This document shows, in pieces, positions 1 to 26,944 of a stretch of DNA of 64,000 nt. The notes under the pieces were generated by a model that searched no databases, was not told where the DNA came from, and saw nothing but the letters and a program-made list of their open reading frames with translations. The position numbers and the translations under genes are program-made. The stretch's first letter is position 1, and every line of letters begins with the position of its first letter. The DNA is from a virus. Its lineage: Duplodnaviria; Heunggongvirae; Uroviricota; Caudoviricetes. Location of the stretch: positions 1-64,000 of the IMG/VR virus record IMGVR_UViG_3300045963_000153. One strand, 5' to 3'.

Positions 1-446
1 GAAGCTGCTGCGACTTTTGCTGCTGGTGCAACATAAGTTTTTGCTGGAGCTTGGCGACCCATAGCACTTTCGCCATCATCATCGACTGCTCCAATGTTTA
101 AAAATGATTGAAGACCATAACGTCTAGCATAACTAATTCCGCTACCTTGCCCTTGTGGATCGTTAGCTTTTGCATATACAATCTCTGTTTGACTAGATAA
201 AAACTCTCCAGATGAATGTAATAGTGTTGTTTCAACAAAAGATTTTCCTTCATTAAAAATCGTTGGTTGTAATACTGTAATATTATTTTTATTTAAAACT
301 GGAATACAAGCTTCTCTAACAGAATTTAAATCAGCAAATTTTGATTTAAAAAAAGGATTTGCCGATCCTTTAACTGCATCTCCCATATCTGTTTGAGCTT
401 TCAATAAATCTAAAGCTAATTTACTAATTGTTTCACTTTTTTTCAT
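1..446 (-). CDS. ERF-family single-strand annealing protein (N-terminal part; C-terminus lies beyond the window edge)
   Basis: Minus-strand ATG at 446 preceded by a purine-rich RBS. The translation MKKSETISKLALDLLKAQTDMGDAVKGSANPFFKSKFADLNSVREA... matches the ERF N-terminal signature (KAQ..NP.F.SKYADL..V). The frame stays open to position 1. Confidence 0.5.
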   Translation of the reverse strand, partial: MKKSETISKLALDLLKAQTDMGDAVKGSANPFFKSKFADLNSVREACIPVLNKNNITVLQPTIFNEGKSFVETTLLHSSGEFLSSQTEIVYAKANDPQGQGSGISYARRYGLQSFLNIGAVDDDGESAMGRQAPAKTYVAPAAKVAAA

Positions 447-1008
447 TTTTCTTTCCTTTCACAATTTTACTAACAGTATTTCTGTCAGCATTAAAACTAC
501 GAGCAATTTCGTTAATTTTAAATCCTAATTTATACAATTCTTGCATATCTATACGAGATTGTAAATTAAATTTATAGTACCCATTAGATTTAAATAATTT
601 AATATCTCTGGCATGTTGTAGATTTTCTTGTCTAGTCATCCATTCTAAATTATATAAACTATTATCTTCTTTATTACCACTAATATGATTAACTTCAAAA
701 ATATAGTTAGAATTATCAAAATGTGATAAAAAGGTTTCGGCTACTAATCTATGATTAAAAACAGAACGTCTACCTCTTCCATCATTAAATTTAACATTTA
801 CCATATTATAATTATTACGATTTTTATAACTTTTAAAAATTGTTCCAGTTATTGAATTTTTAACATTACCATAATTAGAAACTAAAATATTATTACAATT
901 AGGATGAAAAATATATATTTCTTTTTCTTTTGGAAAAAGATTAATAATGTTATTTCTAACACTATTTCTATTATTTTTATCTAATGCGGTAATAGTAGAA
1001 TATTTCAT
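433..1008 (-). CDS. HNH homing endonuclease with C-terminal helix-turn-helix
   Basis: NHRLVAETF....EVNHISGNKEDNSLYNLEWMTRQEN is an HNH_3-like motif. The C-terminal IARSFNADRNTVSKIVKG is a DNA-binding HTH. Confidence 0.7.
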   Translation of the reverse strand: MKYSTITALDKNNRNSVRNNIINLFPKEKEIYIFHPNCNNILVSNYGNVKNSITGTIFKSYKNRNNYNMVNVKFNDGRGRRSVFNHRLVAETFLSHFDNSNYIFEVNHISGNKEDNSLYNLEWMTRQENLQHARDIKLFKSNGYYKFNLQSRIDMQELYKLGFKINEIARSFNADRNTVSKIVKGKKNEKK

Positions 1009-1011
1009 ATT

Positions 1012-1275
1012 TTATAGAACATCTAAACCATTAGACAAGAGAATTACATGTAATCTTTCTTGAATAATGAATTTATCTGTATTGCTTTCAATGATACGGA
1101 TCTCACCCGTTTCTTTTGAATCTTGATTAAATGGAATTTCAATAACATGCCATTTACCGTCAGCTTCATATAATGAATATGCATTATTATTATAAATTAC
1201 TGCTGGTTTTGATGATACTAGAGTTTCTTCTAGTGGTTGAGTTACTTTAAACGTTTTTACTTCTTTTTGTGCCAT
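1012..1275 (-). CDS. hypothetical protein (87 aa, starts MAQKEVKTF)
   Basis: The internal ATG has an AAGGAAAA RBS 5 nt upstream. The N-terminal extension of the listed 141-aa ORF looks like frame read-through. Confidence 0.4.
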   Translation of the reverse strand: MAQKEVKTFKVTQPLEETLVSSKPAVIYNNNAYSLYEADGKWHVIEIPFNQDSKETGEIRIIESNTDKFIIQERLHVILLSNGLDVL

Positions 1276-1288
1276 TTGATTTTCCTTA

Positions 1289-1468
1289 TTATTTAATAAA
1301 TTTAAAAACGCTAATTTTTTTAACCATAACATGTGTACCTTCAGCATCAACAAAAAAACTAGTTGCATCACCAAATTGCACACGTTCTTTAAACTCGTCT
1401 TCAGTTCCGTTAAAATTGATGATATATTTTTTTCCATTCTCTAATTCCAATTCTGCTTTAATATTCAT
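1289..1468 (-). CDS. hypothetical small protein (59 aa, MNIKAELELENGKKY...)
   Basis: Short ORF with an ATGA overlap onto the nadV stop. It was not in the ORF track because it is under 60 aa. Confidence 0.3.
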   Translation of the reverse strand: MNIKAELELENGKKYIINFNGTEDEFKERVQFGDATSFFVDAEGTHVMVKKISVFKFIK

Positions 1469-2934
1469 ACTAATTGTTCCTTTAATCGATTACGAATCGT
1501 ACTGAGAGATTCATCTACAAGTAGTTTACCATCTTTAAAGATTTCTACAAGTAAATTTCCTTCAATACTATCATTTTTTGTTAATCCATCTAAACATACG
1601 ATTTGATTGTTGTTTTTAACAACAGCAACACGACCACGTTTAGAATTTTTTGTTCCATCATCGGTTTTTGGTGCTTTAAAAATTGCTTTCTCATCTCCAT
1701 TAATAGTGACTGAAGTGGCTTTCATTGCAAAACCAAATGTATCCCTAGTATTAAATTGATAAGTAAAACTACCAACGCCAAAAACAATATTTGTACTACA
1801 AAATCCTTTTGACTTAAGACCTTCACAAATTTCTTGTGCTCTCTTAAGAGTAATACTATCGCCATAAATAGCACCAATATGAGAGTCAAGAAGTTTATAA
1901 CTTGAAGCATTTAATGTTCCTCCAAATGTATCATATAAACATTCAATAAGACCTTTTTTAGCAAATTCATTATCACTATTAACATCACCACAGACAATTT
2001 TTACTGGATCTCCACTGTCTGGACGAATAACAAGTTTACCATCTCTCGCCATAATAATATCTTTAATTTGTGGTAAAACATTACCAACAATATTCCAAAA
2101 ATCCCAAGTATCTGATACTACCGAAAGAATACCTTTTGGATGTACTTCTGTTAATAAACGAAGAAACGTTTGTTTCTCATCAGAACCACCAGCAGACATT
2201 ACAGAGTGTTCGGTGGCAAACACTGAAGTTCCAACAAGTTCCTTTTCAACATTAGCATTATAAAATTCTTCTGCTCCAAGGATAGCTGGAATTGTATCTG
2301 TTCCAGCAAATGAAACTAAATGTCCAAGACCACTATTGATTGAACTGTTTACTGAACTCATTCCTCGCATAGCAAAATCGTGTGCTTGAAAATCAATAAA
2401 TCCAAGATCTCCACCAGTTTGTTTTGCATAATTAGTGAGAAGTTTTCTGTATTGATGTGCAATAGTTGCTGATGTCGATGATTGCCAAAGCTCACAAGAA
2501 ATTAATGTTTCAAGAAAGTTTGTTAACCAAAAAAATCTAGAATCTGTATTTTCAATAGTCATCATAGGAACACGAATTGGGCATAGTGTCCCTTCTGGAA
2601 GTGCTTTAATTGATAGTGGTAAATAACCTAAATCATGTAACTCTTCAATATGTTTAGTTTCTGGGTTAGCATCAAAAAATGCATTCTTCATGATACGAAC
2701 ATAATTTGCAATTACTTGTTCTTTTGGTTGACTAAAAAAATTATTATTAAATTCACCAATCAAAAATTCTTTAATTAACTTTTGTTGACCAAAACTTACA
2801 ACACCATCCACGTTAGGAATTAGTGATTGTCTTGGAGTCCAAGTGGAATAAACAACTTCTGTTCCTGTTGGATATTGTTGACGATGATGAAGCTTATATG
2901 CATCTGCTAATAACATTACCTGTGTGTTTTTCAT
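1465..2934 (-). CDS. nadV: nicotinamide phosphoribosyltransferase family protein (NAMPT/NadV-like; Namat candidate)
   Basis: N-terminal LLADAYKLHHRQQYP matches NAMPT LLATDSYKVTHYKQYP. Further family matches are FWLTNFLETL, HDFAMRGMSS, GTDT, VVSDTWD, RPDSGDP and YGDSIT. Confidence 0.85.
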   Translation of the reverse strand: MKNTQVMLLADAYKLHHRQQYPTGTEVVYSTWTPRQSLIPNVDGVVSFGQQKLIKEFLIGEFNNNFFSQPKEQVIANYVRIMKNAFFDANPETKHIEELHDLGYLPLSIKALPEGTLCPIRVPMMTIENTDSRFFWLTNFLETLISCELWQSSTSATIAHQYRKLLTNYAKQTGGDLGFIDFQAHDFAMRGMSSVNSSINSGLGHLVSFAGTDTIPAILGAEEFYNANVEKELVGTSVFATEHSVMSAGGSDEKQTFLRLLTEVHPKGILSVVSDTWDFWNIVGNVLPQIKDIIMARDGKLVIRPDSGDPVKIVCGDVNSDNEFAKKGLIECLYDTFGGTLNASSYKLLDSHIGAIYGDSITLKRAQEICEGLKSKGFCSTNIVFGVGSFTYQFNTRDTFGFAMKATSVTINGDEKAIFKAPKTDDGTKNSKRGRVAVVKNNNQIVCLDGLTKNDSIEGNLLVEIFKDGKLLVDESLSTIRNRLKEQLV

Positions 2935-2935
2935 T

Positions 2936-3391
2936 CTATTCCTCTTTCATGTTTGGATCGCAAATAGTAATACTAATCATATACCTTTTACAAAGTAAAG
3001 TCAATAGTTTCTCTGTTTCTTCCCAATTTACTTTAAACCCACCACTATTAATTTTTGGCATATAAAAATTCTCTTTAAATATTATTGAGTTAAAGAAAGA
3101 ATTTAATGCCAAACCCGTATAAAAATTAATTGAATATGGATCGTCTGGATTTTGACTATCTCCGTTAGAAACATATAAGTTAACTAACCCAAACTCATCG
3201 TAATCATAATAATCATAGGTTCCAAGATCTGAGTATTTACAATATTCTTGATAATCAATAAACATTTTAGGATTAAATTCTTTCAAGGCTTTGGCAACAC
3301 CAGAATCCCATTTTCCCTCGATATTGCAAGATTGGATCAATATACCGTCAGAAGGTACATCCAATACTGACATTTTTTTATAGATTAACAT
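2936..3391 (-). CDS. mini-macro (Macro_2-like) ADP-ribose-binding or processing domain protein
   Basis: ILIQSCNIEGKWDSGVAKALKEFNP resembles the hhh(Q/H)xxNCxGxxGxGhAKxh start of phage mini-macro domains. The first ATG with a purine-rich RBS is at 3391 (MLIYKK); the longer track ORF begins with TTG. Confidence 0.4.
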   Translation of the reverse strand: MLIYKKMSVLDVPSDGILIQSCNIEGKWDSGVAKALKEFNPKMFIDYQEYCKYSDLGTYDYYDYDEFGLVNLYVSNGDSQNPDDPYSINFYTGLALNSFFNSIIFKENFYMPKINSGGFKVNWEETEKLLTLLCKRYMISITICDPNMKEE

Positions 3392-4155
3392 GGTACTTCT
3401 TGTCCTCGACAAATAATTCTATTATAACCAGTCTCTTTTACATCTTTTAATCTATTAGGTTGAATAATATGACTAATATGAAGGTCAATAGACTTACTAA
3501 TAGATTTTAAATCTTTAATAATATTAATAAATGTTGCTCCCCCATCAATAAGGTCATCGCATACAAGAACATTTCCTAACTCAAACTTTTCTGGTATATA
3601 TAACTTCATTTCTAATATCTTGCCAGTAGAAGGATCTCTATGCTTTTCAAAATATCCTTTATCAGCTTTATTAAAAGCAAAAGGAATATGCGTAAACATT
3701 TCAGAGTAGCGAGTTAACGCACCTTTATCTGGAAAAATAATTGTATCGTAGAAATGTTTATTATCTTCAAAATAAATAGCTAACTCATAAGGAAGAATAT
3801 TAATAACATGTGATCGGATTGCTTCAACATTATGAATATCATACGCACTTTTCTCACATTGCATTAATGATAAAACCGTTTTGAAAGTATTTAAAGCAAA
3901 TGTACTACCAGATAAAAACATTGGTTTATCCTGTCGTGCATATGGAAGTGTTGGCATATAAATTCTATGTTCAATATCATTTGCGGATAATACTTGTGAT
4001 AATTGTAATAAATGAAAAATTTCTGCATCATTTTCAAATTTAAAAATAATTTCATTCATTTCTTTATATTTAACAAAATTAGTTAATCCCCAAACTTGAT
4101 GAGTATTATCTGGAAATTTTGTTGGTTTAATTTCATGTCCATTAAGTGTAATCAT
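3385..4155 (-). CDS. ribose-phosphate pyrophosphokinase (Prs) family protein, shortened (Adps-like candidate)
   Basis: MPTLPYARQDK matches the Prs IPYFGYARQDR signature. VLVCDDLIDGGATF matches the PRTase/Prs VLVDDMIDTGGT motif. Length is 256 aa versus about 315 aa for cellular Prs. Confidence 0.8.
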   Translation of the reverse strand: MITLNGHEIKPTKFPDNTHQVWGLTNFVKYKEMNEIIFKFENDAEIFHLLQLSQVLSANDIEHRIYMPTLPYARQDKPMFLSGSTFALNTFKTVLSLMQCEKSAYDIHNVEAIRSHVINILPYELAIYFEDNKHFYDTIIFPDKGALTRYSEMFTHIPFAFNKADKGYFEKHRDPSTGKILEMKLYIPEKFELGNVLVCDDLIDGGATFINIIKDLKSISKSIDLHISHIIQPNRLKDVKETGYNRIICRGQEVPC

Positions 4156-5171
4156 TTTTTCTCCAATTTAATTAATCCGTCCATTGAATTTTTATGGCAT
4201 AAATCACGATACATACATGGTCTGTAATAACCATCATTGTCGCATTTAGTAAGATCTGGAGTGATTTCCCCACTATTAATCTTATCATTTACCATTCCAA
4301 TATTATCTATCACAGCATCAATAAATTCAATAGGAATTTCATCAATAATAATTTGCATTGAACATGTTGGATGTAAAGTCTCTTCCCACTCACCATTGCA
4401 TCGCACAGGTTTTGGTGGATTAGATAAAAGTTGTGCCACTTCATTATCACAAGTTTTAAATTTACCGCCACTACCATCTTTATTACATATTTTGCAGATT
4501 TTCTTTTTGTTCTTTTTAATATTCTTAGAAAATACTACATAACCTGCTAAATTGGTATTGTATTTATCTCCCAATGTATATAGGTATTGTGATAACTGAA
4601 TTGATTCTTTTACAGAGTTTGCTTCATAATCTTTACTAGCGGTTTTAAAATCAAGTACAATCGGTTTATCATAACCTTTAAGCTTAACTACAGCATCTGC
4701 ATAACCTACGTTAGAATCGTCACCGGAGGTTAATAATACTTCTTCCTCTGTGCTATAGACTTTTTCTAATAATGGAATAAAATTGGTAATAAACGAATCA
4801 ATCATTAAGTGTGCTTTAGTTCTTAATGATTCCCAAGGTGTCTCACCAAAATCAATGTCAAAATCTGATTTACTATAAACAACATTTATAGATTCTTTTA
4901 GATTTACTGTAACATTATTAAATTCTTGGAATGTCCATGCTTTATCAAAAAAATCTTTGGCAATAGAAATATCTACCTGATTGTTTGTAAATGCTTGTAG
5001 AATATGTTCAAAGGTTTTACCGATTGCACTACCAAAAATTAATGGACTAGCAATACTTGTTGGTCGAAGACGCTCAACATAGTGGTTATACCAAGCTCTT
5101 TCACAAAATTGAAATTTTTGAATCTGAGAATGCGAAAGACGGTTAGCCATTTTAAAAATCTCCCTTGGCAC
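4152..5171 (-). CDS. PD-(D/E)XK nuclease, Cas4/RecB-like, with C-terminal Cys cluster
   Basis: The N-terminus SHSQIQKFQFCERAWYNHYVERLRP is Cas4/YqaJ-like. GYADAVVKLKGYDKPIVLDFKT is a D...(D/E)xK core. C-terminal cysteines (C...C..C......C) suggest an Fe-S or Zn site. Confidence 0.5.
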   Translation of the reverse strand: MPREIFKMANRLSHSQIQKFQFCERAWYNHYVERLRPTSIASPLIFGSAIGKTFEHILQAFTNNQVDISIAKDFFDKAWTFQEFNNVTVNLKESINVVYSKSDFDIDFGETPWESLRTKAHLMIDSFITNFIPLLEKVYSTEEEVLLTSGDDSNVGYADAVVKLKGYDKPIVLDFKTASKDYEANSVKESIQLSQYLYTLGDKYNTNLAGYVVFSKNIKKNKKKICKICNKDGSGGKFKTCDNEVAQLLSNPPKPVRCNGEWEETLHPTCSMQIIIDEIPIEFIDAVIDNIGMVNDKINSGEITPDLTKCDNDGYYRPCMYRDLCHKNSMDGLIKLEKK

Positions 5172-6045
5172 AAGCTAATGTTACAATTCCACGACTTCTC
5201 CACATATCAACAACTCTCGCCCTATCATCAATAGCAAATTTAATATTTGCAAATCTTGTTTTTATTTCAAAATCTAAAATAATTTCTTTTACTAACTTAT
5301 CATCCCTATGATCTGCACGAGGACGCATCATAAGATAATCATAAAAGAATTTATTATCTTCCAACCATTTTTTAGTTTGTGGTTTTAATGAATCTGGTCT
5401 GCCAGAACAAAAAACAATGAGATTTTTATCTCTCATACTGTTAACAATTTCTCTACACCACTGATTCGGTGTATCTAAATGTATATTATCAAAAAAAGAT
5501 TTCCAATCTGCTTTTTTTCCATCTTTCTTATCAACAAAATATAGCCTGTGGTCTATATTTGCTGCTGTTCCATCGATATCAACCAAAATTGCAGAACTTC
5601 TATTTGTAATGTTTGGATAACGGTATTCAACCGTATCGGCTTCATCAAAAGTAGGACGTTCATATTTACTAAAAAACATATTTAATGCATTTTTAGCATG
5701 TTCTTCGGTTGTAATTGTTGGGTGATCAAGTCTAGCATTACATCTTTTAAGACAAGTCTCATAGTTTTCATGCATAACAATGATTTGTGTTTCGTATCCA
5801 GATTCTTTCGCTGGGTTTAGATAACGAGCACGTTGTTCTTTATTAAAATTAAGACGATCCATAACAATGTTACGTTTACATTCAATAGCAGCTTTAAACA
5901 TAGTCAAATGACCAGATTTAGTATGATCATCCTGATTGATACGAAGAAAATGATTTCCATCAGATTCTAATTGAGATGAAATTGAATGTGCTAATGAAGT
6001 TTTGCCAGCACCGCTTGGACCACAGAGGATAATTAATTTTGGCAT
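5152..6045 (-). CDS. pnk: polynucleotide 5'-kinase / 3'-phosphatase (T4 PseT/Pnk homolog)
   Basis: P-loop ILCGPSGAGKTS at the N-terminus. HAD phosphatase motif ILVDIDGTAAN. The C-terminal FAIDDRARVVDMWRSRGIVTLACAKGDF aligns with T4 Pnk [28 protein letters not shown]. Confidence 0.9.
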   Translation of the reverse strand: MPKLIILCGPSGAGKTSLAHSISSQLESDGNHFLRINQDDHTKSGHLTMFKAAIECKRNIVMDRLNFNKEQRARYLNPAKESGYETQIIVMHENYETCLKRCNARLDHPTITTEEHAKNALNMFFSKYERPTFDEADTVEYRYPNITNRSSAILVDIDGTAANIDHRLYFVDKKDGKKADWKSFFDNIHLDTPNQWCREIVNSMRDKNLIVFCSGRPDSLKPQTKKWLEDNKFFYDYLMMRPRADHRDDKLVKEIILDFEIKTRFANIKFAIDDRARVVDMWRSRGIVTLACAKGDF

Positions 6046-6046
6046 A

Positions 6047-6331
6047 TTATGCCTTACGTCTAAATGTAGGAGCCATATATTCTTCTACTTCATATGGAAC
6101 ACAGTATGAAAAATCAGTTCCATCATAACTATCATAATGACCATTAGCTTGAACAAAAAAAGTTTCTCCGTCTTTACATGTAATTTTATACACATAAGTA
6201 TAAGTTTCTCCCTCACCTTCTCCACCACTTTCAAGAGCATTATGAATTAATACTCCTTTAATTTCTGGCGTAGTATAATGATCATATTGTAATTGTTTTT
6301 GAATTTCATTAATAATTTCGATTTTAGTCAT
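6047..6331 (-). CDS. hypothetical small acidic protein, paralog A (GGEGEGE motif)
   Basis: 94 aa. Shares the GGEG(D/E)G, GxYxSxD and YEVEEY motifs with the adjacent ORF. Confidence 0.4.
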   Translation of the reverse strand: MTKIEIINEIQKQLQYDHYTTPEIKGVLIHNALESGGEGEGETYTYVYKITCKDGETFFVQANGHYDSYDGTDFSYCVPYEVEEYMAPTFRRKA

Positions 6332-6620
6332 GTTTTTTAACCTTTCTCCAATCTTTAACTTCTTTAATATATTCTTCTACTTCATATGCTTTATCATCAA
6401 ACTGGTTACTATCCCAACTACTATAATATCCATCAATACGAAACAAAGCTACTTCTTTTCCTTGAGAAATTTCAAAAATATAAGATAGAGGAGCACCGTC
6501 CCCTTCACCACCGACTTCAGCTTCAATTTGAACGTCATAACCTTCTAATTCAAATTCTTCATAATAACCACCGTCCATCATAAAATTTGATAATTCTTTG
6601 ACAATTAACTTTTTATCCAT
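6324..6620 (-). CDS. hypothetical small acidic protein, paralog B (GGEGDG motif)
   Basis: 98 aa. Tandem paralog of 6047-6331. Confidence 0.4.
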   Translation of the reverse strand: MDKKLIVKELSNFMMDGGYYEEFELEGYDVQIEAEVGGEGDGAPLSYIFEISQGKEVALFRIDGYYSSWDSNQFDDKAYEVEEYIKEVKDWRKVKKHD

Positions 6621-7353
6621 TTTTCATCCCCTTATGTATTTGAAAATAACGTTCGTTCATTTGATTAAATCTTAAATCAAAATAGTTGTCAATTAAAAAT
6701 AAATTAAACCATCCTGTAGTTGAAGAAGTAATTAATTGCTTTAACGCTTTAGCTAATGCAATTTTAGGTGGATATTCTAAATATCTTTCAATTCCAAATA
6801 CATAAGCTTCTTCTAACGCACATTTAAGTTTTTCTTCATGAGTAATTTTGTCCCAAAGTAATTTGCTACACTTTACACTATGTAAATTGGGGCGAATAGT
6901 TTCATGTAATGGTCTATCGCCAAATTTAACAAGTTCATGTAATTCATCGTGATTATATTTTCTAGTAATTTTTGAAGTAAAGAATGTATCTGTATCGCCT
7001 TCAAGTTTTACTTTTTTCTTGTGGTGGATTATAGACCAGTCTTCCAAAAGACTCTCATAAAGCTCATAATTGAGTTTACAGCCCTTATCTTTCATGAACT
7101 TGATATCATGCATAGTCTTATCGAAATTGATATCATAGCAAGCGTGAGAGATTTTAATAGTATATAGGAAGTTTGGATCTACATACCGAGTATCACTATT
7201 AAATTTTACAATATGTTTAAAAGATGGAGCAAAATGGTATTCTATTCCTTTTCCGCTTTTACCTTTACCAATATAGTCAAGATCTTTTGGGTTTCTTGGA
7301 AAATCAGGAAACCAATGTTTTAGTGCTGTGCTACCAAAAATTAAATTATCCAT
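6613..7353 (-). CDS. putative Pol-beta-superfamily nucleotidyltransferase
   Basis: The N-terminal LIFGSTALKHWFPDFPRNPKDLDY fits a GS...D.D nucleotidyltransferase motif. Weak. Confidence 0.35.
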   Translation of the reverse strand: MDNLIFGSTALKHWFPDFPRNPKDLDYIGKGKSGKGIEYHFAPSFKHIVKFNSDTRYVDPNFLYTIKISHACYDINFDKTMHDIKFMKDKGCKLNYELYESLLEDWSIIHHKKKVKLEGDTDTFFTSKITRKYNHDELHELVKFGDRPLHETIRPNLHSVKCSKLLWDKITHEEKLKCALEEAYVFGIERYLEYPPKIALAKALKQLITSSTTGWFNLFLIDNYFDLRFNQMNERYFQIHKGMKNG

Positions 7354-8326
7354 TTTTTACCACTTGAGAATATACATCATATACAAAATTGTCAATCCAA
7401 GTTTGATCTGGGGTTTCTCTAAGTGATGATGTCATTTGTGCTGCTTGAAGTTTTTCTAAACCATCAACAATAATATCGGCAACTTCATTATATTCCATTT
7501 TACCAATTTTAATATTTAAAAGTAATTCTCGATCTGGTCTTGGGAATGTAACAAATGAAGTTTTAAGTAATTCTAATCCTTGTGAATTAACTCTAACCGC
7601 ATGTGAAAGTGCTTTCCAGTCGATTCCTTCGTTTAATTCTGCTTTTAGTGCTCTCTGCCCATATTGATCAAAACGTCTTTGGACTTGATCTCTAGCCATT
7701 TTAACGGAACTATTAAAAGCATAGTGCTTATCACATACTTTTAAAAACATATCTTTAGTTCCAAACTTATTATCTAATTCCACAATAGAAATAAATTCAT
7801 TATTTGAATCTACAACAAAATTAATTAAAGCGATGTGATTTTCATGAAGTTTACTATGTAAATGTAATTTTTCTAAAAAAGAAATAGTATCTCGTAAAGC
7901 AGCAACACGAAATCCTTTTAAACCATATTTTGCTGCTTGCTGTCTTGCATAGCCAATAAATGCTGCAAGATTTTTAGAAATTAATTTTTCTCTATTATTG
8001 TAGATGTCAGAAAAGATATAGAAATCATCTTTATTTAAATATGTAAACATTCCAAGTGGAGCAAATAAAATATCAAGGGAAACAGTTTGACCTTCAGATA
8101 ATAATTTAAGATATCGATCTAAACTAAATATTTCAACGTCAACATCATCTTTGGTGTTACGTTCATTTACCGCTTTTGGTCTTTGTGTACTAATTGTTTT
8201 TTTATAATTACCTAAAACAATTTCACGAGCTTCTGGAATATATATTGATTTTAAATCTAGATCTGAGTTTGGCGTAGAGGTGCCGTAAAGGGCACTTCCA
8301 AATTTAAGTTCAAATAATTTATTCAT
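7346..8326 (-). CDS. Pol-beta-superfamily nucleotidyltransferase (minimal-NTase / RlaP-like)
   Basis: FGSALYGTSTPNSDLDLKSIYI is a canonical hG[GS]x9-13Dh[DE]h nucleotidyltransferase motif near the N-terminus. An alpha-helical C-terminal domain follows. Confidence 0.6.
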   Translation of the reverse strand: MNKLFELKFGSALYGTSTPNSDLDLKSIYIPEAREIVLGNYKKTISTQRPKAVNERNTKDDVDVEIFSLDRYLKLLSEGQTVSLDILFAPLGMFTYLNKDDFYIFSDIYNNREKLISKNLAAFIGYARQQAAKYGLKGFRVAALRDTISFLEKLHLHSKLHENHIALINFVVDSNNEFISIVELDNKFGTKDMFLKVCDKHYAFNSSVKMARDQVQRRFDQYGQRALKAELNEGIDWKALSHAVRVNSQGLELLKTSFVTFPRPDRELLLNIKIGKMEYNEVADIIVDGLEKLQAAQMTSSLRETPDQTWIDNFVYDVYSQVVKNG

Positions 8327-8610
8327 GATTTTAATTTACTACTAACAACTGTACATTCTGTAAAGACCTTTGGTGGTTTTTTATTAGCCATAGCCTTTTG
8401 AAATTCGTGTTCCATTATAGCATTATTATATTCTGAAGCACAAATATTTTGTAAATCTTCAAATATCATTCCATCTGGTATTAAATTTGCTTTTTTTAAT
8501 TCCGTCCAAATTGCTGGTAGATGATTAAAAACAAGCTGTGGGAGTATGTTTGGGTAACCAAGTTTAGTTAAATAATCTATAATTACTTTTTTTGTTTGTT
8601 CTTTATCCAT
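8323..8610 (-). CDS. hypothetical protein
   Basis: 95-aa ORF, operon-packed with ATGA-type overlaps. Confidence 0.35.
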   Translation of the reverse strand: MDKEQTKKVIIDYLTKLGYPNILPQLVFNHLPAIWTELKKANLIPDGMIFEDLQNICASEYNNAIMEHEFQKAMANKKPPKVFTECTVVSSKLKS

Positions 8611-9080
8611 TAAGGTTTTGATCCATATACTTTACTATCAATAACTAAAAAACCGTCTTTATGTAACCCATTATCCCGATTTCCCGGATTATAATGAACC
8701 CAATGGATAATTGCTCCCATTGGTGATGGTCTTTGTGCTCGTGAGCTTACTGTTATATAATCACCACAAGCTAGAATTCTCATACCAGACATCAATACTG
8801 GTAATTGACCAAACTCATTATTATAAATAATTTCAATATCTCCACCGAAGATTGAATCAATATCTAAAGAAAAATGTGTGTGCCCAGTTTGGTTTGGATA
8901 TACTGTAACTACTGTACCACTAACCAGTGCTCGTTTTAGTGTTTGGTCTGGAGTATTATGTTTCCAAAAAATAACTTGTTGATTTAAATTTGGTAAAATT
9001 CTATTGTCAATATCTAAACAATTTGGAACAAGGGCAAATGTTTTTGTTGTAAATAGTAAAATCAATAGATATTTTATCAT
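8610..9080 (-). CDS. secreted hypothetical protein (signal peptide)
   Basis: N-terminal MIKYLLILLFTTKTFALV hydrophobic signal. C-terminal HWVHYNPGNRDNGLHKDGF. Confidence 0.4.
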   Translation of the reverse strand: MIKYLLILLFTTKTFALVPNCLDIDNRILPNLNQQVIFWKHNTPDQTLKRALVSGTVVTVYPNQTGHTHFSLDIDSIFGGDIEIIYNNEFGQLPVLMSGMRILACGDYITVSSRAQRPSPMGAIIHWVHYNPGNRDNGLHKDGFLVIDSKVYGSKP

Positions 9081-9355
9081 CTCTTAAAATCCAATCTATA
9101 ATCTAAAATACCACTTATAGTATGTCCATCTAAAACTTTATTAGAATCTTTAAAATCTTTATGCGTATTACCACATTGACAATTTAAGTATTCATCTTCA
9201 ATTTTTGGTGGTGTATCAGTTAGCCCATAGTAACCACGAGTAGTTTGATCCATTTTTTCAAAATGACCAATCCAATCTTTTTCCCAAGTAATTATATATT
9301 CTAAGTCTACTGGGAAATAACACCAGCCACATTTATTACATTCTATTAAGTTCAT
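9077..9355 (-). CDS. Cys-rich small protein (Zn-finger-like)
   Basis: CNKCGWC ... CQCGNTH cysteine pairs. Confidence 0.35.
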   Translation of the reverse strand: MNLIECNKCGWCYFPVDLEYIITWEKDWIGHFEKMDQTTRGYYGLTDTPPKIEDEYLNCQCGNTHKDFKDSNKVLDGHTISGILDYRLDFKR

Positions 9356-9668
9356 TTAATTCTCTTTGAATTTGTTCATCGTCAACTAAAACATAACCAG
9401 AAATAATAGCATCTTGTAAATATTCATTAGCTCCTAAATTTAAAAAAAGATATGATTCGGCTTTTTTAATATGAAATGAACTAGTTCCTTTATTATATTT
9501 TTTTAATTGTTTTATATGATTATCTCTAACAGTTTTAATATCTGCTTTTGACATATATACAGAACCGGGAAAAGCTTGATTTGTTTTAGCATCAACAGCT
9601 TCTACTGCAGTTAAAATTTCATCCCATTGTTGTTTTAAAAGAGATTTTTTAATTTTAATTATTTTCAT
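9336..9668 (-). CDS. hypothetical protein
   Basis: 110-aa ORF. Confidence 0.3.
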   Translation of the reverse strand: MKIIKIKKSLLKQQWDEILTAVEAVDAKTNQAFPGSVYMSKADIKTVRDNHIKQLKKYNKGTSSFHIKKAESYLFLNLGANEYLQDAIISGYVLVDDEQIQRELNELNRM

Positions 9669-9818
9669 TTTTTAACCTTTTTATTATCGCATCCCATACA
9701 ATAAATTTTATCAGTTTTTTCATTCATAACACCAGCATAAATTTGAGCACCACAAATACTGCAAGTCAACAATTCATAATCTGATTGTTTCTTTTTGTGT
9801 TTTTTCTTTGGTTTTCGT

Positions 9819-10034
9819 TTAGCTTTGCTCATAATTATTTAGCCAAGTATTAACTTCTTCAGAGTCTGGAAGTTTTTTAATAATCAAATATGCTTTATTT
9901 AAAAGAAATTCATACTCCATGTTTTTTTTCATGGTTTGAACATTTAAATCGCCAATGAATAAAGCTTCTTCCGTTGGATCTGGAGCTTTAAACTTAACTA
10001 ATAAATTTTGCAATGATTTCGTTAACCGAAGCAT
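9819..10034 (-). CDS. hypothetical protein
   Basis: 71-aa ORF. Confidence 0.3.
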   Translation of the reverse strand: MLRLTKSLQNLLVKFKAPDPTEEALFIGDLNVQTMKKNMEYEFLLNKAYLIIKKLPDSEEVNTWLNNYEQS

Positions 10035-11550
10035 CGAATCCTACCACCCTTAAAATATTTGCATCGTTTTGAGGAAAATTAGTGACCCCATTGGCAACCA
10101 TTGCCACTTCTATAACTTTAACATTTTTATTAATAGTACGGCGATACTCATTTAAAAGATCAATTGAATGTCTACCACCAGCATATGTTTCACTATCAGT
10201 TAAAATTACAATAGCATCAAACTTGCGTTTAGTTTGTAATGCATACTGAATTGGAATAGAACAATCTGTGCCTCCTCCATGAGTAACGGCTTTCATAGCA
10301 TCAGTAATCGCTGTACGTTTACCCAAAGCAATCTGTTGTAGTTGTGTATCAAATGCAATTAATTCTGCATTAGGTTCAGTTTTAAGAGTTGTTAGAGCAA
10401 GCACAGCACCGAGTTGTGTTGCTGTAAAAGATGTACCGCCGACTTCGGTATTCATGCTTCCAGATACATCTAAACCAACAAGGATGTTTTTACCTGTCGC
10501 ATTAAAATCTTCTACAGAATTATGATAAGCATCTTCTAATGCATCTACAAGCTTTTGATTTACAGGCCAAGTTCCATTACCTTTAAATCCTTTACCACTA
10601 GCATATGTTTTCAAATAATTAACAATATTAACTGGATGAAGTTTTGAATATTTAATTGAAGATTTATTTAGTTTTGTTGTTATAATAGCTTTTGTTGTAT
10701 CACTTAAACCCTCGGTTAATTTAGCATTAGCAAATCTATTTAAATTTCTAATGGTAGCAGTAACAGGCATATTTGGAAGTAATGATTTTAAAACTGTAGC
10801 ATTATTTAATTGATCGGTAGGAATCATTTCCCAAGCTAACTTGTTTTTAACAACAGTATCAACTAGAAGTTCGCCTTCCAATGTTTTGGAAGCTTCAAAC
10901 CCTAAAATTAAACTATTTGTTGTTTCTGGAACTGTACCAGAAACAATATACTTTAAAATTTCATTAATTTGTGGATCTGCACATTTAACATGACAAAGAC
11001 GAAGAACATCTCTATGTGTAAACCCAGAACGATTGCGATATTTTAAAATTTGATAAGTAAGATCTTGTGGAGTTTTTGAAGTATACCAGCGTCCAACAGC
11101 TTTACGAAGTCCAGAAGACCAACCCTTTAAAGTATTTGCTTGAGACACAAATGTTAACAGATGTGTACCTGTACGACAAATTAAATTTAAATTAGTATAA
11201 ATACACTTACGAGTATAATCATCTCCATAAGTAACACAAAGGGCGGCTACAAACAATACCGTATCATATTTCGGAGCATTGTGTGCTTCAATTGTATCAA
11301 AAAGAATATCAACAACAGATTCGCCATGTTGCTTAATTAATTTAATAATTTCAGCAGATGTCTCAATTGTTAATTTTGCTTCCCCAACGTAATATGTTCC
11401 ACCAGTAGAACCAATCAGTAAAAATCTACGAAGTAGCTGTTCTCCAGTGATTGCAAATGAATACCCTTCGGCATTGTTTTTAATCATTTCTGGATAGGCA
11501 GGATGTTTTGTTTTTTGATTTACATTTGAAATTACTTGTGCGTAGTCCAT
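9994..11550 (-). CDS. rsr: Ro60 ortholog (TROVE domain + von Willebrand A domain; Rsr)
   Basis: The N-terminal ~350 aa has a TROVE-like helical repeat region (YYVGEAKLTIETSAEI..., LRKAVGRWY). The C-terminal vWA domain has the MIDAS motif LVGLDVSGSM...GGTD...TDSET. Confidence 0.75.
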   Translation of the reverse strand: MDYAQVISNVNQKTKHPAYPEMIKNNAEGYSFAITGEQLLRRFLLIGSTGGTYYVGEAKLTIETSAEIIKLIKQHGESVVDILFDTIEAHNAPKYDTVLFVAALCVTYGDDYTRKCIYTNLNLICRTGTHLLTFVSQANTLKGWSSGLRKAVGRWYTSKTPQDLTYQILKYRNRSGFTHRDVLRLCHVKCADPQINEILKYIVSGTVPETTNSLILGFEASKTLEGELLVDTVVKNKLAWEMIPTDQLNNATVLKSLLPNMPVTATIRNLNRFANAKLTEGLSDTTKAIITTKLNKSSIKYSKLHPVNIVNYLKTYASGKGFKGNGTWPVNQKLVDALEDAYHNSVEDFNATGKNILVGLDVSGSMNTEVGGTSFTATQLGAVLALTTLKTEPNAELIAFDTQLQQIALGKRTAITDAMKAVTHGGGTDCSIPIQYALQTKRKFDAIVILTDSETYAGGRHSIDLLNEYRRTINKNVKVIEVAMVANGVTNFPQNDANILRVVGFDASVNEIIAKFIS

Positions 11551-11574
11551 ACTTTCCCCTTTGTTAAAAAAATT

Positions 11575-11710
11575 GACTGATAAATGTCGTTTATTGGGTT
11601 TTTTCTATCGCTCTACCAACTGAGCTATCCCCCGTCAAAAATGTTCGGGGGAGCAAGAATCGAACTTGCGACATATAGTTCCCAGTATAACCAATAAACT
11701 ACGACCAGTC
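11575..11710 (-). ncRNA. yrlA: YrlA-like Y RNA: Ro60-binding bulged stem enclosing a permuted tRNA-like module
   Basis: On the minus strand: GACTGGTCGT(AG)TTTATTGG ... T-arm GCAAG-TTCGATT-CTTGC ... acceptor-like helix TCCCCCG/CGGGGGA closed by an 11-nt loop ... D-arm GCTC-AGTTGGTA-GAGC ... CCAATAAACGAC-ATTTAT-CAGTC. The 5' and 3' ends pair with an AG bulge, and a U-run follows. It lies immediately upstream of rsr on the same strand. Confidence 0.6.
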
Positions 11711-11797
11711 AAAAATATGGTAGATAAAGATTAAATAAAGGCATTTGGCTTCAAGATAGTTGAAAACCTTTATTTGACGACCTACCAGTAAAATTTT

Positions 11798-11928
11798 GCA
11801 AAGAAATAAATATTGAGATGGATATAGTGCGTTACCAATTACGCCACCAGAGGATTACTCCACCAGATGGGACTCGAACCCATAACACTTCATTAACAGT
11901 GAAAACCCATCTCTAACGACCTCTCTGC
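11798..11928 (-). ncRNA. second tRNA-like or Y-like RNA element (canonical T-arm GGTTCGAGTCC, anticodon-like arm with a GUU loop, D-arm-like GCG-TAATTGGTAA-CGC; no canonical acceptor pairing)
   Basis: The minus strand has TTTCA-CTGTTAA-TGAAG (a perfect 5-bp stem with a 7-nt loop, U33/A37, Asn-like GUU) and ATGGG-TTCGAGT-CCCAT. The termini GCAGAG/CTTTGC and GAGATGG/CCATCTC can pair. A hairpin plus U-tract (about 11713-11790) separates it from YrlA. Confidence 0.3.
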
Positions 11929-11972
11929 TTAATTAGTTTACGTCATACAAAATATGAAGTCAACAATTATTT

Positions 11973-13826
11973 TTAAGTAATTTCACACAACCCACCAGCA
12001 CAAGCTAAGTTATCAATACGATTGGTGTTATCATCGTTTTCTCTTACTTTAGTAAGATCAATATCTTTAACCATTGAATTATATTTATCGAAAGTTTCTT
12101 TATCACAAGTTTCAAATGGGGCTTGTTGATATGTTCCACCGTCAAATGGTAATAAACTAATGCCTGTATAACTTTCACGGAATTTCCACATAAGATCAAA
12201 TAGTTCTTCTATTTCAGAATCTTTGTAAGAAATAGTAACACTGACATTATGTTGATTCACACCTTGGTTATGTCCGGGTTTAATCCAGTTATCTTGATAC
12301 AAAGTTGTACGTTCAAACATAGATTTAACAGACTCTGCATCTCTAATAATTGCGCCATTTGGTGATTCTTGTGGAATAGTAACCACAACACCATTTGAAG
12401 AGAATACATCATCTTCTACCAATTCAGGAACAACACTCTTTAAATAAACACTAAGAGCATCATCTTTATTCATTCTAACTCGACGAAGATAATAATTGGC
12501 ATGGCGAGCATGGATACCAGAAGAACTACCCAAAACACAAGAAGCCGTACCTTCGGGTTTAATAGTTGTAATACGAGCAGCAGGATTAATCCCAAGTTTA
12601 CGAGCATATTTTTCATTGACTTCTTTTGCGAGTTTAGCTCCTTCATTTAACCATTCTGCAGTAATTAAACCGCTTGCGTCTGCAATACCAGTACAACTAA
12701 CTCCTAATAGTGCTTCTAATTCTGTTGTTTGTTTCCAACTTGGACGAAGATAAGGGAAGTCTGTGTATGCCGCTTGAAGTGTTCCAAGTAGTGTTGCTGC
12801 ATAAATACGATTCAACCAATCTTTTTTATCTTTAACGCCAGTTTGATTAATTGTTGTTAAATTACAAAATTGATTGCTATTCAAACTAATTTCGGCGCAT
12901 GGATTAGTTCCCAAATTTTCATCGTTAGTCCAGAAAAAGCCGGGTTCACCAGATTTACTGTTGATACACATATCAAAAATATGTCTGAACTCATCTTTCT
13001 TAACTGCACCCCTTGGAAGTACTGCGGAGTTATTTGCTCTAGCTCTGTATGGATGTTTCTCCCACCAAGTACCATGCTTAGATTTTAGCATTTCATCATC
13101 TGTGCGATCAAATAATGAAATAAGAGCGGCACGACGAATACCACCAGCAAGAACACAATCCGCAATAATACAAACTAGATCGTGAATTTCAATTGGTTTT
13201 AATCTGCGACCTTCAGCAGCTTTCAATCTAGCATCTACTTGTTCTAGCATGTATTTTAATGGTGCAGGGCCGGGGGCTTTTGCACCAGTCGTAACAAGAT
13301 AAGATCCTTTAGGACGAACATTTGAAAAATCATACACAGGACGCATACGACCATAAAAATAAGAGTCCATTAGAATATCTAGTGCTTGTGCCCACCCAGT
13401 AATGCTGTCGTGTACAACAAACAATCCTTCTTCCCTTGGACGTTGAATTACTGGAAGCTTATTAACATGTCTTTTTTGACAGCTAAATCCAACACCAGTT
13501 CCAGATAATAATAGGAATAGTGCTTCACCAAAAGATCTTGGATCATCAATATGTAAAAACGAACAATTGTATGAACGAATGTTATTCTTTAGAATTGCTT
13601 CTCCACCAAACTGTAATGCTCTCATTGATGGCATTACTTTATACTCATGTACACGCTGATATGCTTTTACAATGTCACGAGATAATTTTGGAAACTTATC
13701 TAAATGCATTTGCATATTACGATTTAATGTTTCTTCAAATACTTCTCGTCTACCAAAGTTTTGAAGATGCTTTGCGTATGTACGAAAACTTACGATGTCT
13801 GATAATAATTTATTACTTTGATTCAT
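11973..13826 (-). CDS. nrdJ: ribonucleotide reductase, class II (adenosylcobalamin-dependent, NrdJ-like), monomeric type
   Basis: Has the RNR active-site loop TNPCAEISL, NrdJ-like central segments and the C-terminal Cys pair ACAGGLCEIT. No separate small subunit is present. GAGAGAGG RBS. Confidence 0.75.
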   Translation of the reverse strand: MNQSNKLLSDIVSFRTYAKHLQNFGRREVFEETLNRNMQMHLDKFPKLSRDIVKAYQRVHEYKVMPSMRALQFGGEAILKNNIRSYNCSFLHIDDPRSFGEALFLLLSGTGVGFSCQKRHVNKLPVIQRPREEGLFVVHDSITGWAQALDILMDSYFYGRMRPVYDFSNVRPKGSYLVTTGAKAPGPAPLKYMLEQVDARLKAAEGRRLKPIEIHDLVCIIADCVLAGGIRRAALISLFDRTDDEMLKSKHGTWWEKHPYRARANNSAVLPRGAVKKDEFRHIFDMCINSKSGEPGFFWTNDENLGTNPCAEISLNSNQFCNLTTINQTGVKDKKDWLNRIYAATLLGTLQAAYTDFPYLRPSWKQTTELEALLGVSCTGIADASGLITAEWLNEGAKLAKEVNEKYARKLGINPAARITTIKPEGTASCVLGSSSGIHARHANYYLRRVRMNKDDALSVYLKSVVPELVEDDVFSSNGVVVTIPQESPNGAIIRDAESVKSMFERTTLYQDNWIKPGHNQGVNQHNVSVTISYKDSEIEELFDLMWKFRESYTGISLLPFDGGTYQQAPFETCDKETFDKYNSMVKDIDLTKVRENDDNTNRIDNLACAGGLCEIT

Positions 13827-14036
13827 GTGCCTCTCTCATGTTGTTAAAATGGTCAGGTAGCTGGTGACGCTCCAGATCCCTCGCTTCACAGGCGAGTACA
13901 TTGACTAACTATATGCTACTACCTGTATAAAATTATAGCCCTCTCGTGTGCGTTACACCAGCGTCATCGTGGGTAATCCAACCCAGTGAATACACAGTCA
14001 TTTCCCACTCCTACCAAGGGCACCGTAGGATTACAA
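13827..14036 (-). promoter_or_regulatory. GC-rich structured 5' leader of nrdJ (candidate riboswitch or cis-regulatory RNA; weak cobalamin-riboswitch-like motifs)
   Basis: A 210-nt ORF-free gap of about 50% GC inside a 30% GC genome. Perfect hairpin CTCGC-CTGTGAA-GCGAG and long-range pairing GACGCT/AGCGTC. The minus strand reads GGTGCC..GGGAA..GATGACGCTGGTGTAACGC, reminiscent of the GGTG / GGGAA / GCTGACGC..GGTAA blocks of B12 elements. Confidence 0.3.
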
Positions 14037-26449: not shown

Positions 26450-26944
26450 TTAAACTTTAATATGTTTCCAAGTTTTACCTAATGATATTTTACCTATAGT
26501 ACTATAATTAACATTAAATTTAATTCCCAATTCTTTATGAGTATAACCAATTAATAATAATTTTTTAATTTCAATGACTTGAGCTTCTGTTAATATGCTA
26601 CTGTGACTATCTTCCCCACATTTTTTTTTATACAAACCGAGTTTCCACCCATGTCTTATATTTTCTTTTGTTGTAACATACTCTAAATTTTCTAATCTAT
26701 TATCAGTTTTTACGCCATTCTTATGATTTACTTCTAATTTACTTTCACCAATAAAAGAAAGCATAACTAATCTATGAATAAACATACCTCGCCGTTTACC
26801 ATTGTTTCTTAAATCTACAACGTGATATCCCTTTTTTGATGAAGTTGGTTTTAGTATTTTATTATATCTAACTGATAACACTTCTCCATTTGAGCTAATT
26901 TTATAAAGACCATCGAATATTGGGATATCTTTCCAAACAACCAT
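26450..26944 (-). CDS. HNH homing endonuclease (NUMOD4-like N-terminus + HNH_3)
   Basis: WKDIPIFDGLYKISSNGEV (NUMOD4-like) and FIHRLVMLSFIG...EVNHKNGVKTDNRLENLEYVTTKEN (HNH). Confidence 0.7.
   Translation of the reverse strand: MVVWKDIPIFDGLYKISSNGEVLSVRYNKILKPTSSKKGYHVVDLRNNGKRRGMFIHRLVMLSFIGESKLEVNHKNGVKTDNRLENLEYVTTKENIRHGWKLGLYKKKCGEDSHSSILTEAQVIEIKKLLLIGYTHKELGIKFNVNYSTIGKISLGKTWKHIKV

Follow-up and report, generated by a model that had tools for sequence, protein, structure and literature searches.

The 64,000-nucleotide stretch of viral DNA analysed here (positions 1-64,000 of IMG/VR record IMGVR_UViG_3300045963_000153, hereafter the window, whose positions serve as coordinates throughout) covers most of the ~85 kb, ~32% G+C genome of an uncultured phage, and the three adjoining genes on its minus strand between positions 1465 and 4155 very probably constitute an anti-defence operon of the NARP1-AP type, a variant of NAD+ reconstitution pathway 1 (NARP1). 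NARP1-AP was described in January 2026 as the gene set Adps-Macro(Adpp)-Namat, present in 15% of the phages that carry NARP1 (Osterman et al., bioRxiv 10.64898/2026.01.28.702374). The assignment is based on sequence homology, on catalytic residues that are kept, on the order of the genes and on their repeated linkage, and the three chemical steps discussed below are drawn from published work on the systems of phages SPbetaL1, FADO and Gary. Because an operon with the same gene order has been published, the three-gene arrangement is not new, and the view of the first-pass annotation of this DNA that the intervening macro gene is non-standard and the arrangement unusual no longer holds. What the locus offers is a modest novelty, namely a macrodomain that belongs to the lineage of yeast Poa1p proper and that carries a singular His-to-Gln change, which would make it a divergent addition to known NARP1-AP operons.

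All three open reading frames (ORFs) are confirmed on the minus strand and are transcribed from 4155 towards 1465. The first encodes a 256-aa homologue of ADP-ribose pyrophosphokinase (Adps-like, Prs superfamily; 3385-4155), the second a 151-aa Poa1p-type macrodomain at the Adpp position (2936-3391) and the third a 489-aa predicted nicotinamide ADP-ribose transferase (Namat, NAMPT family; 1465-2934). The sequence ATGTTAA at 3385-3391 (minus strand) holds both the macro start and the Adps-like stop, an overlap indicative of translational coupling, and the macro stop and Namat ATG are one base apart. The start of the Adps-like gene is in turn overlapped (ATGA) by the upstream gene, which encodes a PD-(D/E)XK nuclease whose C-terminal part is rich in Cys (4152-5171, minus strand). 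Shine-Dalgarno-like sequences are present as GGAG 7 nt 5' of the Adps-like ATG and as GAGGA upstream of Namat. On the basis of these start/stop overlaps and the one-base spacing, the trio is predicted to belong to a single, densely packed transcription unit. A scan of positions 1-9500 for consensus promoters and terminators gave counts no higher than in shuffled sequence, so that the boundaries of the operon cannot be drawn. The Adps-macro-Namat trio also occurs in two related contigs (L003 and L009), which argues that the juxtaposition of the three genes is not due to chance.

The product of the last gene is, by homology and residue conservation, a Namat. It matches the family profiles PF04095 (1.7e-44), PF18127 (4.3e-9) and phrog_448 (2e-199) as well as NCBIfam PRK09198 (560 bits, cut-off 405), in keeping with its earlier placement in the NAMPT/NadV family. 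Searched against 50,697 phage genomes, the protein finds its best matches in Bacillus phages (57-60% identity), SPbetaL1 and FADO included, and identity to the validated Namat enzymes is 57-58% for SPbetaL1 and FADO and 47% for Gary. Against the PDB the protein scores 646 bits with SPbetaL1 Namat (9W5X/9W5W) and 517 bits with 9KE8, compared with 213-224 bits for Nampt-type structures (human and rodent Nampt ~222; 7YQO, deposited as 'Pre-B cell enhancing factor related protein', 213). The Namat adenine-clamp motif is present as GSFTYQFNTRD at residues 388-398, with F390 and F394 as its aromatic residues. Moreover, the catalytic core is kept as H243, R304, D213, F187, D11 and Y13 (reference residues H243 in Gary, R306 in SPbetaL1, and Asp215, Phe189 and Asp13/Tyr15), and so are the other catalytic or NAD+-contacting residues R190, D306, G358, D359, F390, F394, T396, R397 and D398.

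The product of the first gene had been recognised as a shortened Prs-family protein from the signatures PYARQDK and VLVCDDLIDGGAT. Both strings are present, and at 256 aa the protein falls short of both E. coli Prs (315 aa) and validated Adps (272-290 aa). Does such a protein behave like Prs or like Adps? Both Osterman papers define Adps operationally as a Prs-superfamily gene lying close beside Namat, and here only the 151-aa macro gene lies between the two, on the same strand and overlapping. Namat is a neighbour of 97% of Adps-clade genes and very rarely of cellular prs (Osterman et al. 2024). The protein matches phrog_619 (1.4e-43), and its matches to NCBIfam Prs models are all below threshold; the curated cut-offs are missed by the window protein as they are by validated Adps. 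On TIGR01251 (cut-off 113 bits) the window protein scores 44.5 bits, its L009 relative 77 and its L003 relative 23, while the controls give 106 (SPbetaL1 Adps), 96.5 (FADO), 99.9 (Gary) and 423 (E. coli Prs, which reaches 423 and 533 bits on its best NCBIfam models); on PRK00934 the window protein scores 52.4 bits against a cut-off of 296. BLASTP gives 43-54 bits to the Adps of SPbetaL1, FADO and Gary versus 24.6 bits to E. coli Prs, and a hidden Markov model (HMM) of the window clade scores 64-72 bits with Adps and 33 with Prs. The difference between phrog_619 and TIGR01251 scores separates Adps from Prs, being +105 bits for the window protein, +95 to +105 across its clade, +142 to +178 for Adps and -230 for E. 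coli Prs. The catalytic Lys (K171, motif EKHRD) aligns with K162 of SPbetaL1 and K192 of Gary, and three features are common to the window clade and Adps and not to Prs: loss of the N-terminal helix (MIxLNG start), FK[FY]EN[DN] and KxRxxxTGxI. A contig search that took E. coli Prs as query yielded no Prs other than those of Gammaproteobacteria, all with 80% identity or more, and no Adps structure was found in the PDB. Membership of the Adps clade is thus supported rather than proven, and in these comparisons the protein behaves like an Adps, with ADP-ribose as its presumed substrate. Together, the 57-58% Namat identity and the missed Prs cut-offs bear out the earlier suggestion that the pair represents NARP1 rather than a classical Prs and NadV. 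As a separate observation, both enzymes match the single 547-position profile phrog_12872, the Prs-like protein at positions ~75-222 and the NAMPT-like protein at ~376-536, which suggests that some phages encode Adps-Namat fusions.

The gene between the two enzymes begins at an ATG at 3391, as indicated by independent gene calls on four assemblies and by homologue alignment, and encodes 151 aa; the length of 158 aa given in the first-pass annotation derives from a mechanical ORF (2936-3412) that opens with TTG. For the single sequence the Pfam Macro profile scores 19.2 bits, below its 22-bit threshold, and the family-profile and fold comparisons are what decides the assignment. By phmmer the protein matches yeast Poa1p (6LFQ) with E=7.8e-10 over almost its whole length, including MPKINSGGFKVNWEETEKLL. 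An exhaustive search recovered 422 homologues, and a profile of 95 family sequences run against the PDB finds Poa1p at 5e-39 (~137 bits), followed by OARD1/TARG1 at 1.5e-15 and DarG at ~1e-15, so that Poa1p is the closest homologue of known function. An AlphaFold2 model has a predicted local distance difference test (pLDDT) score of 96.7, and the six best PDB matches of this model by Foldseek are all Poa1p, with a template modelling (TM) score of 0.84 over the whole length and 30-32% identity. Because of this confident model and full-length fold match, the middle protein is predicted to be a complete macrodomain of the Poa1p type (ADP-ribose-1''-phosphate phosphatase), and the label 'mini-macro' does not suit a domain of full size; the accompanying suggestion of a macrodomain that fits ADP-ribose chemistry is upheld by the profile and fold matches and by hhalign, which aligns the window family with 11 published Adpps at 99.6% probability (E=2.7e-24) over the full length. 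The Adpp criterion of the 2026 paper is a macro-domain protein within two genes of the NARP1 pair, and the window gene lies between Adps and Namat. The ratio of nonsynonymous to synonymous substitution rates (dN/dS) of the macro gene relative to its orthologue in L003 is 0.25, with values of 0.14-0.42 for neighbouring genes, and the macro gene as a whole has evolved under constraint.

How would these three proteins act together? The RES-domain defence aRES cleaves NAD+ by phosphorolysis into nicotinamide and ADP-ribose-1''-phosphate, a product that Adps cannot use (bioRxiv 10.64898/2026.01.28.702374). As a first step, the macro protein would remove the 1''-phosphate from ADP-ribose-1''-phosphate released by RES-type NAD+ phosphorylases such as aRES, yielding ADP-ribose. 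Adps, with ATP, would then convert ADP-ribose from this step, or from NADases with TIR, SIR2 or SEFIR domains, into ADP-ribose pyrophosphate (ADPR-PP), from which Namat, with nicotinamide, would regenerate NAD+. The second and third steps are well supported. The purified SPbetaL1 enzymes form ADPR-PP and then NAD+, and deletion of the FADO operon sensitises the phage to DSR2 (Osterman et al. 2024). The first step is the expected role of the macro gene family: Poa1p is the closest characterised homologue of NARP1-AP macro proteins, and purified Adpp of Vibrio phage Gary converts ADP-ribose-1''-phosphate to ADP-ribose and lets NARP1 defeat aRES (bioRxiv 10.64898/2026.01.28.702374).

The macro family of the window recurs beside NARP1 genes elsewhere. 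The related contigs L003 and L009, whose macro proteins are 72% and 50% identical to that of the window, have the order Adps-macro-Namat, which in L009 is split by an endonuclease VII gene (L009:4456-4854) between macro and Namat, and a third contig (L010, macro 47% identical) has Namat-macro; the third gene there, which follows this pair, was considered as a Prs-like candidate and ruled out. Both Adps-like and Namat-like genes lie within 5 kb in 11 of 37 IMG/VR macro loci, in the order Adps-macro-Namat or Adps-Namat-macro. At 24 of the 37 there is no Namat/Nampt-like and no Adps-like gene within this distance, and the same is true of the macro genes of contig L011 and of Myxococcus phage Mx1, the latter being the single match of a tblastn search of phages with the macro protein and having no NARP1 nearby. 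In two loci (L015:5001-7352 and L023:5001-7406) a Poa1p-type macro gene stands beside a NAMPT-family gene that shares only 33-34% identity with Namat, and no Adps-like gene lies within 5 kb; these may represent a macro and NadV pairing of a different kind.

Is this family the same as the published Adpps? A profile of Gary-type Adpps scores 84 bits against Bacteroides BT1257 (2FG1) in the PDB and 38-48 bits against Poa1p, and the Gary-type family is closer to the uncharacterised BT1257 and to a Streptomyces macrodomain than to Poa1p. Set against the ~137 bits of the window family to Poa1p, this difference indicates that at least two macro lineages occupy the Adpp position. The phosphate-loop motif likewise reads PKINSGxFxVxW in the window family and PKIGCGLAGGDW in the Gary type, and none of the proteins in Table S1 of the 2026 paper contains the Poa1p-type motif [IFL]NSG. 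An independent recruitment of the Poa1p-proper lineage to NARP1, apart from Gary-type Adpp, would represent a convergent extension of the pathway, but we regard it as improbable. Predicted Poa1p-proper macro phosphatases, outside the published catalogue, sit in NARP1 operons of metagenomic phages, and their linkage suggests that the arms race of phages with RES-type NAD+ phosphorylases reaches further than had been apparent. The locus in the window itself adds a divergent example from an uncultured phage to the NARP1-AP counter-defence pathway and leaves the current picture of that pathway unchanged.

Several observations weigh against the assignment of the locus to NARP1-AP. The Prs-like protein is very divergent, being only 26-28% identical to validated Adps by BLASTP, and gave no hit in a Pfam scan. 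With an HMM trained on just three Adps, E. coli Prs (83 bits) outranks the window protein (75 bits), so that this model fails to separate the two, and phrog_619 taken alone accepts E. coli Prs at 193 bits, for which reason it was rejected as a stand-alone Adps marker. In the Namat, Arg40 of the selectivity-clamp loop, which stacks on adenine, is replaced by Leu38; this loop has been described as variable, and the Arg is also replaced in validated enzymes (Lys in FADO, Asn in Gary). Namat is, furthermore, able to make nicotinamide mononucleotide (NMN) from phosphoribosyl pyrophosphate (PRPP) in vitro. When the profile of the 11 published Adpps was run against all 328 ORFs of the window, the macro ORF was the sole match and a weak one (17 bits). 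Within the macro protein, the usual Pro of the xVPW motif is Asn (Lys in L003), a conserved Gly of the family is Asp, and the catalytic His that is essential in Gary and listed for Poa1p is missing. Codon 20 of the macro gene (3332-3334, minus strand) reads CAA, for Gln, at the position of Poa1p H23 and Gary Adpp H24, whereas 94 of 95 homologues have His in this column, the window protein being the sole exception.

Hhalign pairs Q20 with Gary H24 and N23 with Gary N27, and the catalytic Asn is kept as N23 (N26 in Poa1p). The His is present in the nearest relative (72% identical) and in all 32 readable IMG/VR loci, including the 11 linked to NARP1, and CAA differs from a His codon by a single third-position change. 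Sequencing error was considered and excluded, since the identical Gln20 protein occurs in four assemblies and no member of its 90% cluster has the His; Gln20 is therefore a real allele. The first-pass annotation, which read the NARP1 pair correctly, had overlooked this change in the macro protein. In Gary Adpp, H24A and N27A are inactivating mutations and H24A abolishes the anti-aRES phenotype (bioRxiv 10.64898/2026.01.28.702374). The key catalytic residues of Poa1p appear in a phage-genome paper, there as a secondary citation, as His23, Asn26, Ser30 and Gly33, and deposited Poa1p structures include the mutants H23A, S30A and F152A. In view of Gln20 the protein is filed here as a Poa1p-type macro protein at the Adpp position and not as a proven Adpp. 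We consider it a little more likely than not that its phosphatase activity has been reduced or lost. If so, the phage would behave as a plain NARP1 phage, and L003, L009 and others with the His would be the carriers of complete NARP1-AP. The Gln20 allele may mark a phage population with a lost or changed answer to aRES-like defences, and as a natural His-to-Gln allele it is a ready-made test of the role of an invariant residue.

Could Gln20 nonetheless suffice? A fully functional NARP1-AP, in which Gln replaces His adequately, for example through a hydrogen bond to the 1''-phosphate or to water, and still counters RES-type NAD+ phosphorylases, is possible, and we hold it only tentatively. The rest of the protein is intact, with a confidently modelled fold and with N23, F119, W123, T126 and E127 all conserved, the gene has a dN/dS of 0.25, the allele persists in the population, as its presence in four assemblies indicates, and in Gary only Ala, not Gln, was tried at this position. 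Opposed to this are the loss of the anti-aRES phenotype in Gary H24A and the near invariance of the His across homologues and viral loci, the 72%-identical relative included, which argues that other residues are not tolerated for normal activity.

A different explanation of the macro gene is that it acts on another ADP-ribose derivative, such as O-acetyl-ADP-ribose, ADP-ribosylated DNA, RNA or protein (as DarG and TARG1 do) or the Appr-1''-p of Tpt1-type reactions, and releases ADP-ribose from it or just binds it. DarG and TARG1 are the next structural neighbours after Poa1p, the operon lies beside genes for a polynucleotide kinase, RlaP and Ro60/TROVE, and neither partner gene lies within 5 kb of the macro gene in L011, in Mx1 or in 24 of the 37 viral loci. 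The PDB also lists a complex of Poa1p H23A with ADP-ribose, so a protein without the His could still bind ligand. The profile match to Poa1p (5e-39) is nevertheless far stronger than those to DarG and TARG1 (~1e-15), the gene is translationally coupled between Adps and Namat, and the family is linked to NARP1 in 30% of loci, whereas NARP1 is carried by only ~4% of phages overall. An origin of the substrate in RNA repair (Tpt1, Appr-1''-p) had been prompted by the kinase, RlaP and Ro60 genes, and was set aside when neither Tpt1/KptA nor RNA ligase Pfam domains gave a hit in the scanned ORFs of the window or in the annotated contig flanks. For these reasons we judge an alternative substrate unlikely.

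A further proposal is that the His20-to-Gln change is adaptive and has turned the protein into one that binds without hydrolysing, as a sponge or substrate trap, either ADP-ribose-1''-phosphate or another ADP-ribose-derived signal, or has retuned its substrate. This we regard as quite improbable; if true, Gln20 would be a natural switch from enzyme to sequestering protein inside an NAD+ reconstitution operon.

A last alternative concerns the enzyme pair. In agreement with the earlier statement that the window holds no NMN adenylyltransferase (NMNAT), the NMNAT/CTP_transf_like Pfam gave no hit in the window ORFs of 120 aa or more that were scanned up to ~48 kb (a few structural-module ORFs left out), and no NMNAT is annotated in contigs L005 and L052, which reach beyond both window ends, with ~5 kb of contig outside the scan. 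Classical salvage, in which the Prs-like protein would supply PRPP, the NAMPT-like protein would make NMN and a host or undetected phage NMNAT would complete NAD+ as in NARP2, would suit the membership of the two proteins in the Prs and NAMPT superfamilies, the NCBIfam name PRK09198 (560 bits), the in vitro formation of NMN by Namat and the compatibility of phrog_619 with Prs, but is very improbable given that the NAMPT-like protein scores nearly threefold higher to Namat than to Nampt and has the adenine-clamp motif, that all curated Prs cut-offs are missed widely, that no NMNAT was found in the scanned ORFs or annotated flanks and that the SPbetaL1 homologue of the Prs-like protein did not function as a Prs.

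The preferred reading, a NARP1-AP-type operon, can be placed among characterised systems. It shares with the NARP1-AP of Gary the three families, their order on a single strand, the overlap of Adps stop and macro start (L014 coordinates 3001/3001 in Gary), a macro protein homologous over its full length and the catalytic Asn of macro, Lys of Adps and His of Namat. It differs in that the Gary macro belongs to the lineage nearer to BT1257 and that of the window to Poa1p proper, in Gln20 at the position of Gary His24, in sequence (Namat 47% and Adps ~28% identical to those of Gary) and in the phage, which is unrelated to Thalassavirus. With the NARP1 of SPbetaL1, FADO and coliphage Bas63 (Osterman et al. 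2024; PMC12774641) it has in common adjacent Adps and Namat genes on one strand, the GSX..TRD clamp motif and catalytic core of Namat, and an Adps shortened relative to Prs with its catalytic Lys kept. Those operons, in contrast, consist of two genes and have no macro, their Adps are 272-277 aa long compared with 256 aa in the window, at 26-28% identity, and the window Namat has Leu at loop Arg40.

The window macro protein and yeast Poa1p (6LFQ) have in common the motifs CN..G.W..G[IV]A and PxINSGxFxVxWxxTE. Poa1p, however, clears a by-product of tRNA splicing in a eukaryote and contains an insertion of ~25 residues, its His23 corresponds to Gln20 of the window protein, and its Ser30 and Gly33 correspond to Lys27 and Ser30, two positions that are unconserved across the family. 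NARP2 of Vibrio phage KVP40 (NadV and the bifunctional NMNAT NatV) also rebuilds NAD+ through a NAMPT-family enzyme, but it needs an NMNAT and uses PRPP, whereas the window has a Namat-type member of the NAMPT family, and the NMNAT scan described above was negative. A closer parallel in logic is the RyDEP-extended NARP1 of mycobacteriophage DyoEdafos (bioRxiv 10.64898/2026.05.28.727677), in which an accessory gene of the operon likewise turns a defence-derived ADP-ribose derivative into linear ADP-ribose for Adps and Namat, the accessory protein there being a RyR-domain glycosidase acting on 2'/3'-cyclic ADP-ribose and not a macrodomain.

The window has a minus-strand arm of replication and nucleotide-metabolism genes and a plus-strand arm of structural genes (terminase, portal). 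The terminase is at most 23% identical to that of any cultured phage, and megablast of window positions 1000-6100 against 50,697 phage records gave zero matches, which indicates that the phage has no close cultured relative. A 59-aa ORF (1289-1468, minus strand) overlaps the Namat stop by 4 nt and is a possible fourth cistron of the operon; a gene of this length is called directly after the NAMPT-like gene also in L005 and in the contig of P0002, and a family search with it gave no match. At the other end of the operon, the PD-(D/E)XK nuclease gene keeps its place upstream of the trio in L003 and is present in L009, and it probably forms a recombination module with the downstream ERF gene.

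Just upstream of the operon, at 5152-13925 on the minus strand, lies a set of genes with the appearance of an RNA-repair cluster. It comprises genes for a polynucleotide kinase/HAD phosphatase (PNKP; 5152-6045), a DUF7275/DUF7277 protein (6613-7353), an RlaP nucleotidyltransferase (7346-8326), a Ro60/TROVE protein with a vWA domain (9994-11550), a class II ribonucleotide reductase (11973-13826) and tRNA-His(GTG) (13850-13925), and a PNKP gene is also found near the NARP1-AP genes of L009. On the downstream side of the operon, an HNH endonuclease gene (433-1008, minus strand) is missing from an otherwise matching 84.8-kb contig of the same sample (L005 and L053 compared), in which the ERF recombinase gene follows directly. 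The same HNH gene also occurs on a separate 1.2-kb contig, a pattern that resembles an insertion polymorphism due to a homing endonuclease. Another gene of this kind (HNH/NUMOD4) is located at 26450-26944.

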